Source: Dehalococcoidia bacterium
GTDB lineage: Bacteria > Chloroflexota > Dehalococcoidia > Lucifugimonadales > UBA3495
Assembly: GCA_965203435.1 (NCBI GenBank)
Contig: CBDBCU010000006.1
Span: 366,518 to 430,517 of the forward strand
DNA: 64,000 nt
Direction of reading: 5' to 3'
The first letter of the stretch is position 1. Each line of letters begins with the position of its first letter. The notes under the pieces are model-generated. The model worked only from the letters and a program-made list of their open reading frames with translations, was not told the DNA's origin and made no database searches. Of this stretch, positions 44,861-47,651 are shown piece by piece. The translations under genes were made by a program, and so were the position numbers.

Positions 44861-45622
44861 TTAAATCAGGGCTTCCGGGGTGAAAATCCCCTCGAAATCG
44901 GCGGCCGTGGCCGGGTTTGCCGGGGCCACGCCCAAAGTGGTTTCCATAAACCAATAGACCTGCTTGAGATGATGGGTGCTGTGGCTGAGGATGATGTTCA
45001 GCAGTTCCTCGACCGTTACTTCCCCGCCGTAATGGGCCGGCACCACCCGGTTCAGGGCGGCATCATCCTTGCCGTTCAGGAAAGCGGTAATGCTGCTGAT
45101 AACCCCCCGGCCGTAGTCGGCAATTTCCGCCGGCTGATTCACCCCGGTCAGCCGTTCCCGGCACGCCTGCATATCCTCCGGGGTCATGCTGCCGGTGCGG
45201 TGGCTCAGCCAAGCCAGTTCCGGGAAGGACAGGATGTGGACGATGGTGTCCCGCAAGGTTTCCGGCCGCCAAGCCACTTCCCGCTGCAACTGCGCCGGGG
45301 AAAGCTGGAGGGTAGCCCGGATGGTAGCGTTCAGGATGCGGTCGTACTTGTCCGCCATCCACTCGGCCCGCCCGGAAAGCTCCACCTGCGCCGTCAGCTG
45401 CAAGAGGTCAATCAGCTTCCGGGGGTAGTAGCCGATGATGATTTCGGTATCGTCCACCACCGTAACCGGGGCCGACTTGATGCCGTGACGGATCAGGAAA
45501 GCCTGGGCCGCCGGTTCGCTGGCAATGTCGTGGTGCTCATACTGAACACCGTTGGAGGCTAGAAACTCCTCTAGCGTCCGGCAGCTGAATCAACCCGGGT
45601 TGGTATAGACATCTACTTTCAT
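44861..45622 (-). CDS. Putative selenoprotein: UxxC glutaredoxin fused to DinB-family domain (253 aa, Sec at codon 11)
   Basis: GGAGG RBS, ATG 45622: MKVDVYTNPG-UGA-FSCRTLEEFL...HDI...KSAPVTVVDD..IIGY, in frame with ORF 45460-44861 (TIVHIL, HSTHHLKQV). Confidence 0.85.
45554..45579 (-). promoter_or_regulatory. Candidate bacterial SECIS hairpin
   Basis: mRNA GGA-C-GCUAGAG-GAGU-UUCUAGC-C-UCC; loop begins 21 nt after UGA, with G first in the loop. Confidence 0.65.
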
Positions 45623-45821
45623 TTCTTTGCCTCCGGCGGCCGCTGTAATTCGGCCGCCCCGTTCAGGATAGCGGAAACCGGGAAACATAGCAAGGGCGGA
45701 AAAGCGGCTTTTTCCGCCGCCATCATCCTTTGCCCCTTAGCCGCCGGAAAGTTATATAATGGGATTAGGCAAGGGATTTTGCCGGGCCGGGTTTGCCGGG
45801 CCGGAGCAGGGAGGGCCAGTT

Positions 45822-46766
45822 ATGGATCCGGACGGGATGACGATTTGGCAGGAAACTCCGGCCGCCGACTATCTGATTGCCGGCTGGAAAAACCAGTGGT
45901 CGGACGGCGGCAACATTTCCAGCGGCCTGCCCGCCTATCTGATTGAGCGGCTGAACGCCCGCAAAATCGGGCGCTTGGGGCCGGAAATTGAGCGGATGTG
46001 CTATCCCTTTCAGATTGCCGGCACCCACGACGCCTTTCGGCCGGCGGCCGCCTTTTACGAGGGTCTGCCCAGCGTGCCAATGCACTGGGACAACGAGTTT
46101 TATGACGCCGGCAACGGGCTGATTGTCTTTCTCGGCGAGGAACCGTGGTTCGAGCTGGATTTGTACGGAGATGCCCTCTTTGCCGCTATCCGGCGGCTGG
46201 GCATTAAGCAGACCGCCGCCGTCGAGGGCTACAACGGCCCGGCCCCGCCGGATTTGGAACGGCGGGTGGGCTGCGTGTTCAGCCAGCCGGAAATGCAGGA
46301 TACCCTGGAACGCCACGGCATCCAGTTTTCCAACTATGGCAGCGGTACCCGCCAGGGGCCGACCATTGGCATGGCCCTGGTAACGATGGCCCACTATCGC
46401 CACCCGGACTTGTCGGTGTTCCGCCTGGGGGCTATGGCCCCGATGTATCCCTTTTCCACCTCGGGCAATCGGCAGGTGGGCATAGTCACCGACTACCGGG
46501 CTTTCTTTGACCTGATGCGGCGCCTCAAAGCCATGTTCCGCCTTTCCATCGACCTGTCGGATTTGGAAAGCCGGGGCAACGCCGAATCGGCTCGCTTGCA
46601 GGAAACCCTGGAACGCATCAGCAATTCCAATTCCAACGCCCGGGAAATCATCGACCGGGTGCGCGCCGATTACCGCTACATCCCCTTCGAGGAACCAGTG
46701 GAATTGCCGCCGCAGCTGGATCAAGCCCTGGATGACATCCTGCGCGAAGGGCCGGAACCGGCGTAA
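45822..46766 (+). CDS. PAC2 (proteasome assembly chaperone-like) family protein
   Basis: LIAGWKNQWSDGG, FLGEEP, YGSG..GPT, IDLSDLE; similarity judged by motif pattern. Confidence 0.75.
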   Translation: MDPDGMTIWQETPAADYLIAGWKNQWSDGGNISSGLPAYLIERLNARKIGRLGPEIERMCYPFQIAGTHDAFRPAAAFYEGLPSVPMHWDNEFYDAGNGLIVFLGEEPWFELDLYGDALFAAIRRLGIKQTAAVEGYNGPAPPDLERRVGCVFSQPEMQDTLERHGIQFSNYGSGTRQGPTIGMALVTMAHYRHPDLSVFRLGAMAPMYPFSTSGNRQVGIVTDYRAFFDLMRRLKAMFRLSIDLSDLESRGNAESARLQETLERISNSNSNAREIIDRVRADYRYIPFEEPVELPPQLDQALDDILREGPEPA

Positions 46767-46868: not shown

Positions 46869-47651
46869 TTGCGCCTGGCCGGAAAAACCGCCCTGATTAC
46901 CGGAGCCAGCCGAAACATCGGCAAGGAAACCGCCTTGACCTTTGCCCGGGAAGGGGCCGACCTCATCCTCAGTTCCCTCAACAGCCCGGAGGAACTGGCC
47001 GCCGTGGCCGCCGAATGTCGCGATTTGGGGGTCAGCGTCTATACCGCCCTGGCCGATATTGCCGATGCGGCCCAATGCCGGCAACTGGTCGCCGACGGAC
47101 TGGCGGCCTTGGGGAAAATCGATGTGCTGGTCAGCAACGCCGCCATTCGGCCGCATCATCCCCTGCTGTCCGTTACCGAGGCCGACTGGCATCGGGTTTT
47201 CGCCATCAACCTGCACTCCAGCTTTTACCTGTGCCAAGCGGTTCTGCCGGGGATGATGGAACGGGAAACCGGCAGCATCATCGCCATCGGGGGAATGGCT
47301 GCCCTTACCGGCCGGCCGGACACCGCCGCCGTTACCGCCGCCAAAACCGGCCTGTGGGGACTGATCCGCGCCGTAGCCGCCGAGTTCGCCCCCTACAACA
47401 TCCGGGCCAATATGGTCAATCCCGGCACTATTGACACCGCCCGCCGCAATCCGGAGTGGTTTGCCCGGGAATCCCGGCGGCCGGACGGCAATTCGGAACA
47501 GTTGCGCCGCATCCCCCTGGGCCGGCAAGGCGCTGTTTCCGACATTGCCAACGCCTGCCTCTTTCTGGCGTCTGACGAATCCGCTTACATCACCGGCGAC
47601 CAGCTTAATGTGGTCGGCGGCCGCTATATGGTAGCCGCCGCCACCGACTGA
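46869..47651 (+). CDS. SDR-family oxidoreductase
   Basis: TGASRNIG, VSNAA, VTAAK (catalytic Tyr replaced by Val), VNPGTIDT, YITG. Confidence 0.92.
   Translation: MRLAGKTALITGASRNIGKETALTFAREGADLILSSLNSPEELAAVAAECRDLGVSVYTALADIADAAQCRQLVADGLAALGKIDVLVSNAAIRPHHPLLSVTEADWHRVFAINLHSSFYLCQAVLPGMMERETGSIIAIGGMAALTGRPDTAAVTAAKTGLWGLIRAVAAEFAPYNIRANMVNPGTIDTARRNPEWFARESRRPDGNSEQLRRIPLGRQGAVSDIANACLFLASDESAYITGDQLNVVGGRYMVAAATD

Follow-up and report, generated by a model that had tools for sequence, protein, structure and literature searches.

The 64,000-nucleotide stretch of Dehalococcoidia DNA that we analysed (the window) carries on its minus strand, at 44861..45622, a gene that very probably encodes a genuine selenoprotein of 253 residues, in which a glutaredoxin (Grx)/NrdH-like UxxC domain is joined to a DinB domain. 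The predicted decoding of UGA codon 11 as selenocysteine (Sec) by SelA, SelB, SelD and tRNA-Sec is strongly supported by comparison with related genomes. Direct translation gives a frame that runs from an ATG at 45622-45620 to a TAA at 44863-44861 and is interrupted only once in its 253 codons, by the TGA at 45592-45590, and with this codon read as U the product begins MKVDVYTNPGUFSCRTLEEFL. The initial annotation of this DNA had pointed out that the open reading frame (ORF) track begins only at 45460, that the frame extends upstream to an ATG with a GGAGG ribosome-binding site, and that a single TGA, located in YTNPG-U-FSC, is the sole interruption. Each of these statements was confirmed: the listed ORF has a GTG start and encodes 199 amino acids (44861..45460), and the ribosome-binding site lies at 45634-45630. 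GGAG-like sites were also present at comparable spacing in most of the orthologues. The broader proposal of a hidden selenoprotein gene holds as well, given the conserved UGA, the cysteine-containing homologues, the Sec machinery in the genome, and a hairpin resembling a selenocysteine insertion sequence (SECIS).

Our six-frame search covered 40 related genomes, including 24 of the same family, and the protein was present in 20 of these 24. A single TGA was present in each full-length match, and the only match that lacks it breaks off at residue 24, where its contig ends. Twenty orthologous loci were extracted, 19 of which contained the N-terminus, and the TGA codon was found in all 19, always within YT[NQH]PGUFSCRT. 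Across these sequences the eight codons 5' of the TGA have 3 extra states at first, 2 at second, and 16 at third codon positions, and this dominance of third-position variation indicates that the stretch upstream of the TGA is translated and, judging from the codons, is under purifying selection. Deeper full-length paralogues, found within the family, the order, and the phylum at 27-36% identity, share the U of this column without exception (11/11); their motifs are UFTC, UATC, USSC, and, in one case, UFHS. Of 400 further genomes sampled evenly across the phylum, only three had a match at E ≤ 1e-15, each with one TGA. The paralogue with the UFHS motif (locus L115, contig 7 of genome G008) reads C-A-U-F-H-S. 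It retains Sec but has Ser in place of the resolving Cys and a Cys two residues ahead of Sec, which may be a different redox arrangement.

More distant relatives were gathered with HMMER by searching 1.84 billion representatives exhaustively, which gave 428 matches at E ≤ 0.001. From the 150 that were listed we chose 28 that start within the first six query residues and run through the DinB domain, dropping shorter and single-domain sequences. All 28 of these full-length homologues, mostly from Proteobacteria, have Cys both at the Sec column and at the +3 position, mostly within QPGC[ST]SC. The occurrence of either Cys or TGA at this column among homologues, for which the initial annotation had suggested a search, was therefore found in both forms (TGA in 19/19 orthologues and 11/11 paralogues, Cys in 28/28 distant homologues).

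Public sequencing data were also consulted, and no RNA run figured among the runs listed. Contigs from four public runs, belonging to four studies, cover 45575-45605, and among the differences listed there is none at 45590-45592; a TGC or TGT there would have marked the TGA as a sequencing error. Many differences were listed elsewhere in these contigs, one of which spans the whole stretch with 40 differences. Each of the four runs also contained contigs of different loci or organisms whose match is confined to 45528-45610. This 83-nucleotide (nt) segment, made up of the UGA with the codons preceding it and the hairpin, is therefore the best conserved part of the DNA of this gene.

The source genome (3.62 Mb in 8 contigs, 91% complete, 2.5% contamination) encodes the components expected for Sec decoding, and the selA, selB, selD, and tRNA-Sec genes for which the initial annotation had suggested a search were all found. 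Profile searches recovered selA (450 bits), selB through its wing domain (75.6 bits), and selD (390 bits; contig 6, 13582-14502, about 350 kb from the window). As selD itself contains one in-frame TGA, selenophosphate synthetase is likely to be a selenoprotein in this genome too. A tRNA-SeC(tca) gene was predicted twice by ARAGORN, at 286622-286718 of contig 1 and at 77349-77446 of contig 2. Most bacteria have one tRNA-Sec gene, and the second copy could be a real duplication or contamination. TGA serves as a normal stop elsewhere in the genome: the neighbouring enolase-superfamily and short-chain dehydrogenase/reductase (SDR) genes terminate with it, as do 302 of 1456 open frames of at least 400 codons in a crude genome-wide count. 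TGA was the rarest stop in this count (302, versus 673 TAG and 481 TAA; the window has 62% G+C), which is a hint of TGA avoidance in a count that includes spurious antisense frames. Small glutaredoxin-like frames of about 75 amino acids with one in-frame TGA were seen in two relatives, G007 (contig 1, 1741516-1741743) and G013 (contig 22, 8173-8394), in both cases 3-4 kb from the Grx-DinB orthologue. These are possibly selenoproteins of the Uxx-star type, and the same six-frame search reported no such small frame in the source genome.

The two-domain composition of the predicted protein is supported by matches above the Pfam gathering cut-offs. Glutaredoxin (PF00462) matches residues 3-59 with 32.5 bits (cut-off 22.9), and DinB_2 (PF12867) matches residues 95-222 with 37.1 bits (cut-off 24.8), with DinB (PF05163) also passing at 25.3 bits (cut-off 23); the fusion of a Grx-like UxxC domain to a DinB-superfamily domain, as it had been described from the sequence, is thus upheld. 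No NCBIfam model matched at its own cut-off, the best being YruB-type (54.2 bits, cut-off 88.55), NrdH (43.4, cut-off 85.75), mycoredoxin (35.9, cut-off 89.5), and Uxx-star (33.9, cut-off 66), and these scores place the protein outside all four of these families. AlphaFold2, using a 65-sequence alignment, modelled the whole chain without any weak segment (predicted local distance difference test 95.5, predicted template modelling (TM) score 0.90). In this model U11-F-S-C14 lies between a strand at residues 3-7 and a helix at 12-23, so that the ten codons before the TGA supply strand beta-1 of the glutaredoxin fold, and the DinB part consists of long helices at 86-105, 123-143, 164-183, and 204-228. 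The proposed cis-Pro hallmark of glutaredoxins is P52, which is invariant both in the alignment with the Cys homologues and in the 65-sequence alignment. The histidines that the initial annotation took for DinB ligands (VH...HSTHH) correspond to H129 (in IVH) and to H214 and H218 (in SHSTHH), and they are conserved. They form a putative metal triad of the kind that binds divalent metal in the DinB superfamily, an assignment that we base on the Pfam match and on what we take to be the H...HxxxH pattern of the superfamily, not on a residue-level superposition.

Structural comparison by Foldseek agreed with this division into domains. For the N-terminal domain, the best matches were cGrx1 (7c10 and 7c12, target TM-score 0.92-0.95; root-mean-square deviation (rmsd) 0.8 Å for 7c12), BC3987 (3zij, and 3zit at 0.89), and NrdH (1h75, 0.88). 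The C-terminal domain matched 2p1a (0.76), YfiT (1rxq, 0.70), 3dka, 6iz2, and the mycothiol-dependent isomerase 2nsf. A family profile search of the PDB retrieved the same redoxin and DinB groups by sequence, and a single-sequence PDB search with the DinB part gave only irrelevant weak matches. None of the Foldseek matches was a solved chain spanning both domains. Whole-length matches to glutathione S-transferases (GSTs) and CLIC had an rmsd of 14-18 Å and are not meaningful.

Three other explanations of the in-frame TGA need to be considered. The codon could be a real stop, separating a ten-codon leader peptide from a downstream protein with only the DinB domain, and this is what gene calling with translation table 11 in effect produces, as it yields the 199-residue ORF from the GTG at 45460, and most of the listed database entries are similar. 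Such a call would start at residue 55, inside the glutaredoxin domain, whose Pfam match crosses the TGA; the ten upstream codons supply beta-1 and are under purifying selection, and the homologues have an uninterrupted frame with Cys at the TGA column. We therefore regard a true stop as very improbable. A sequencing or assembly error, or a pseudogene, would be possible in principle for a lone in-frame stop in a single assembly, but the same TGA recurs in all 19 orthologues and all 11 paralogues from separate genomes, none of the differences listed for the four public runs falls there, and the remaining frame is intact and conserved, leaving almost no room for this explanation. An altered genetic code, in which TGA would mean Trp or Gly, might be read from the two database entries that have W at the Sec column, presumably because they come from gene callers using code 4. 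Against this, Pfam-supported neighbours and about a fifth of the long frames genome-wide end in TGA, the Grx-DinB gene itself ends in TGA in some relatives, the Sec machinery is complete, and the aligned residue in homologues is Cys, neither Trp nor Gly; recoding of this sort is exceedingly unlikely.

The selenoprotein interpretation is also consistent with the RNA downstream of the UGA. The 7-bp hairpin with a G-initiated tetraloop 21 nt downstream that had been noticed at the outset is real: with the U of UGA numbered 1, nt 18-35 form the stem GCUAGAG/UUCUAGC and its loop GAGU, which begin at distances of 14 nt (stem) and 21 nt (loop) from the UGA, and outer helices reach nt 8-45. It folds with a minimum free energy of -15.8 kcal/mol, corresponding to z = -1.80 relative to dinucleotide shuffles, 8 of 200 of which fold as well. 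The structure of the window pairs 83.5% of cells in the 19 orthologues, compared to 33-53% with slid partners, and its covariation score in these orthologues was equalled by 22 of 500 shuffles. All 30 Sec sequences have a hairpin whose loop spans the same three alignment columns, and the paralogue hairpin CGAAAG-AGUUU-CUUUCG uses these columns with an offset of about 1.5 nt in register relative to the orthologues. As a control for coding constraints, each gene was compared with 300 synonymous recodings of the 48 nt from the UGA. The Sec forms had a mean z of -1.49 (28 of 30 below 0, 20 below -1, 8 below -2), whereas the same segment of the Cys forms had a mean z of -0.23 (36 of 70 below 0, 20 below -1, 2 below -2); this control set consisted of 70 distinct genes, the motif having been found in 75 of 80 loci. 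Taken as a predicted structure, the stem-loop located 14-32 nt downstream of the UGA probably helps Sec decoding as a bacterial SECIS.

The Cys forms of the protein are widespread. A scan of species genomes with one Cys homologue gave 112 relatives, 80 of which were kept, and these are mainly Burkholderiales (Ramlibacter, Paraburkholderia, Caballeronia, and Burkholderia) and Rhodospirillales or other Alphaproteobacteria. Their source names are "glutaredoxin" or "hypothetical protein". The ESM atlas, queried with a natural Cys homologue, contains at least 16 clusters with both Pfam domains, automatically named "DinB superfamily/Glutaredoxin domain-containing protein". Like the window protein, the Pseudomonadota Cys forms have two domains in about 250 amino acids, the cis-Pro, the His triad, and a C-terminal G-x-x-x-P tail, and their CxxC (CSSC or CTSC) stands exactly at the place of the UxxC. 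In the alignment with the 28 Cys homologues, the further invariant columns are P52, H129, H218, G199, and P249. The Cys forms differ from the window protein in overall sequence (21-29% identity), in belonging to a separate tree clade, and in the surroundings of the triad, where LERTxWHxAQHTRQL corresponds to ELLNIILSHSTHHLKQ in the window. Both lack an assigned function. When 30 Sec and 28 Cys forms were placed in a quick maximum-likelihood tree, the window protein fell in an all-Sec clade of 19 with a Shimodaira-Hasegawa-like approximate likelihood ratio test support of 100. Three Sec forms are basal to the Cys clade, a single Cys form on a long branch falls among Sec forms, and the tree requires at least two switches between Sec and Cys.

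As to what such a protein might do, the initial annotation had suggested that one polypeptide couples thiol conjugation to Sec-dependent reduction or recycling, a coupling that we keep as an inference. Our own proposal is a thiol transferase or reductase of the DinB type, with the UxxC module of the protein itself serving as nucleophile or as recycling partner. One possible mechanism, which we put forward tentatively, would combine a DinB metal/substrate pocket with attack by U11, resolution by C14, and recycling by thioredoxin reductase. The DinB domain would bind metal and an electrophilic or oxidised substrate, and the U11 selenolate would act as the nucleophile, either replacing the low-molecular-weight thiol that DinB S-transferases activate or acting on the thiol adduct. 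C14 would then resolve the selenenyl-sulfide, and the oxidised UxxC would be re-reduced by thioredoxin reductase, as in NrdH-type redoxins. No redox residues apart from U/C11 and C14 are conserved in the alignment, and as the DinB domain has no conserved Cys, the redoxin would not be recycling a partner Cys and must act on the substrate or a thiol adduct. Thioredoxin reductase is encoded on contig 3 of the genome (359.5 bits, above the cut-off). Searches of this 91%-complete genome with single family models found none of BshC, MshD, GshB, and E. coli-type GshA above their cut-offs, and EgtB gave only a weak DinB-domain match (23.7 bits against a cut-off of 360).

A bolder version of this idea, which we rate as rather doubtful, is that a DinB-type transferase or reductase carries its own nucleophile, the tethered Sec redoxin taking the place of free bacillithiol, mycothiol, or glutathione. 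To our knowledge, all characterised DinB S-transferases require a free small thiol. If true, selenium would compensate for a missing millimolar thiol pool in a lineage in which no known small-thiol pathways were found, and the Proteobacterial Cys forms would perform the same self-contained chemistry with lower reactivity.

The main functional rival is that the protein is a genuine selenoprotein with another job: U11 and C14 together with the His triad could bind a soft metal or metalloid, making it a chaperone, sensor, or detoxifier, or the redoxin could be a redox switch on DinB without thiol chemistry. A His triad with a selenolate and a thiolate nearby would suit soft metals, and several known bacterial selenoproteins are described as metal-binding in the available text of a recent inventory (PMC13188914). 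Many DinB proteins are labelled merely as putative metal-dependent hydrolases in PDB titles, and no conserved partner gene indicates a thiol pathway. However, no metal-resistance or transport gene adjoins the gene in the window or in the 15 sampled Cys-form loci, the N-terminal domain is nearest to the catalytically active redoxins cGrx1 and NrdH, and the characterised DinB members are thiol transferases, as far as the accessible part of the relevant paper goes (PMC10950700). On balance we find soft-metal binding or sensing, or a purely regulatory redoxin, unlikely.

Some of our results weigh against a thiol-active selenoprotein with a SECIS, or at least limit how far the argument can be carried. 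The related genomes are non-independent samples, and the gene neighbourhood is not kept beyond close kin. A single covarying SECIS consensus over the 30 Sec sequences had to be abandoned, as the sequences use two registers; when all 30 were forced into one or the other, 71% and 68% of cells paired, and the single consensus from RNAalifold reaches only -8.06 kcal/mol. Register one has no double-sided pair changes and shuffles are equally good, and register two has four, a count matched by 285 of 500 shuffles. In addition, a near-palindrome is inherent in the coding of the peptide T-[LK]-E-E-F-L, and part of the folding therefore comes from the protein sequence. Because of this peptide and the relatedness of the sequences, the contrast in the recoding control falls short of conclusive, and the evidence from hairpin stability is supportive. 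On the functional side, the missing thiol-biosynthesis matches do not exclude cysteine, coenzyme A, or another thiol. The Cys-form homologues live in glutathione-producing Proteobacteria, which means that the fusion is not tied to a lack of small thiols. Lastly, near the triad the Sec clade has N209, I210, and S213 where the Cys clade has E, R, and W, and due to these differences the chemistry of the two clades may not be the same.

Features of the Grx-DinB selenoprotein gene in the window
Feature	Position	Strand	Basis
Complete coding sequence: 253 codons + TAA, one in-frame UGA read as Sec (predicted)	44861..45622	-	Translation; full-length single-TGA matches in 20 related genomes
Ribosome-binding site GGAGG	45630..45634	-	7-nt spacer to ATG; read from sequence
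Start codon ATG	45620..45622	-	Same codon position in 16/19 orthologues; other three start at or upstream of the same position
Predicted Sec codon UGA, U11 of U-F-S-C	45590..45592	-	TGA in orthologues and paralogues, Cys in distant homologues
Cys14 codon, putative resolving cysteine of UxxC	45581..45583	-	Invariant (alignment with 28 Cys homologues); TGC/TGT in 19/19 orthologues
SECIS-like stem-loop	45548..45585 (core 45558-45575)	-	7 bp, loop GAGU; outer helices extend the core
Glutaredoxin/NrdH-like thioredoxin-fold domain, residues 1-80	45383..45622	-	PF00462, Foldseek; cis-Pro P52 codon 45467-45469
DinB_2 four-helix bundle, residues 95-222	44957..45340	-	PF12867, PF05163, Foldseek, profile matches
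His129 codon, first putative metal ligand	45236..45238	-	Invariant in alignment with Cys homologues; at least 90% in 65-sequence alignment
His214-His218 codons (H-S-T-H-H), putative HxxxH ligands	44969..44983	-	H218 invariant, H214 at least 90% (65-sequence alignment)
Shortened table-11 ORF, GTG start, 199 amino acids	44861..45460	-	Mechanical ORF listing; database entries of 199-201 amino acids match

In public databases the gene is represented almost entirely by truncated products, as had been anticipated. Entries of 199-201 amino acids with 91-96% identity correspond to the shortened GTG-start call, and most listed entries are either short calls of this type or start at a Met 3' of the TGA. 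Only three of the best 120 public protein entries reach the N-terminus, with W at the Sec column in two and R in one, and none of the eight public protein sequences that were inspected has U or C there. A metagenomic full-length relative (P0071, 61% identity) has Arg at the Sec column, in HPGRFSC. Its codon would be one base from TGA, and this would be a loss-of-function variant or an error.

The genes around Grx-DinB vary considerably. In the window, an alpha/beta-hydrolase gene (BD-FAE/Abhydrolase_3) follows 19 nt after the gene, and then an enolase-superfamily gene, and the divergent upstream neighbours are a PAC2-family gene (45759-46766, plus strand) and an SDR gene (46869-47651, plus strand). 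The hydrolase and enolase-superfamily neighbours are retained only in the closest 6 of the 20 Sec loci. A PAC2 gene adjoins Grx-DinB in 6 of these 20 loci in three arrangements, either divergent or, where both genes share a strand, upstream or downstream, and a linkage that persists through rearrangement may mean something. For the Cys forms, the neighbourhoods were examined by crude ORF clustering and by Pfam searches of 141 flanking ORFs from 15 loci, which revealed varied catabolic genes, including SDRs, acyl-CoA dehydrogenases, ABC transporters, GSTs, and hydrolases. An SDR gene stands beside Grx-DinB in 5 of these 15 loci (L073, L088, L090, L104, and L107), ending directly upstream on the same strand in three of the five, and an SDR is also found near the gene in the window and in three Sec loci. 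A constant partner gene was sought across the 20 Sec loci and the 15 Cys-form loci, and none emerged. Taken as predicted functions, the neighbours suggest small-molecule catabolism or detoxification.

The architecture had been put forward as one not recognised as characterised. As a selenoprotein this stands, since we found no description of it in the curated families and selenoprotein reviews that we searched, but the fusion is not unique: the Cys (CxxC) form is widespread in Proteobacteria, where it too is uncharacterised. Our literature searches combining selenoprotein or selenocysteine with DinB, SAR202, or Chloroflexi returned no description of a Grx-DinB selenoprotein, and those combining DinB with glutaredoxin, S-transferase, or bacillithiol returned general thiol reviews and no Grx-DinB fusion. 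The main text table of a 2026 inventory of 119 prokaryotic selenoprotein families does not list DinB, PF12867, or PF05163 (PMC13188914). A word search for DinB in the available text of a 2022 review had no hits (PMC9312934), and the accessible portions of the Global Ocean Sampling (GOS) survey (PMC2398784) and of a 2006 survey (PMC1794560) do not mention it either. A table in the GOS survey does include a "Grx-like" UxxC family of 42 short sequences (PMC2398784), and this set could include N-terminal fragments of the Grx-DinB family. UxxC thioredoxin-fold selenoproteins are already known, and what is new here is one in a conserved fusion with DinB.

Judging by the names of the closest database relatives, the gene belongs to a SAR202/Dehalococcoidia-type group of Chloroflexota from sponge and marine metagenomes. 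It adds a two-domain family to the bacterial selenoproteome. Gene calls nearly always remove the predicted active site of this protein and have left hundreds of database entries without the putative catalytic residue. Most members of the DinB/S-transferase-like superfamily have no known substrate, and a built-in redoxin linked to this poorly understood superfamily suggests concrete assays. With Sec forms in Chloroflexota and Cys forms in Proteobacteria, the family also provides a clean set of Sec/Cys pairs for studying the choice of selenium.

The closest known systems resemble one or the other half of the protein. The redoxins cGrx1 (Clostridium oremlandii, 7c10/7c12), NrdH, BC3987, and YruB share with it the thioredoxin fold, a U/CxxC at the start of helix 1, and the cis-Pro. 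The window protein is 34-36% identical to cGrx1 over 73 residues, and the family profile matches 7c10 with an E-value of 5.8e-22. Redoxins of the cGrx1/NrdH type are stand-alone proteins of 75-85 residues, whereas the window protein adds a DinB domain of 170 residues. UxxC Sec-glutaredoxins are treated as an accepted selenoprotein family in the consulted part of the 2026 inventory (PMC13188914). The other half resembles the DinB/YfiT members bacillithiol transferase (BstA/YfiT), mycothiol transferase (MST), and mycothiol-dependent maleylpyruvate isomerase, which likewise have a four-helix bundle and a set of three histidines. In the available text of PMC10950700, DinB members are said to hold metal by a His triad, most of them having three conserved histidines, and the DinB/S-transferase-like enzymes are described as metal-dependent thiol S-transferases. 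The sequence similarity of the window protein to this family is visible only by profiles, and the mycothiol transferase model MST_Rv0443 (NF047843) gives it 21.8 bits against a cut-off of 170. The known DinB S-transferases use a free small thiol and have no fused redoxin, unlike the window protein, and no DinB/YfiT member is reported as a selenoprotein in the texts that we searched. A precedent for the fusion is the peroxiredoxin-glutaredoxin HI0572 (1nm3), residues 170-233 of which match the redoxin profile of the window protein. The partner domain of HI0572 presumably has its own catalytic Cys that is recycled by the Grx, and in this respect it differs from the DinB domain of the window protein, which has no conserved Cys. 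What the two share is a Grx fused in the same chain to the enzyme that it serves or, in the window protein, would serve.

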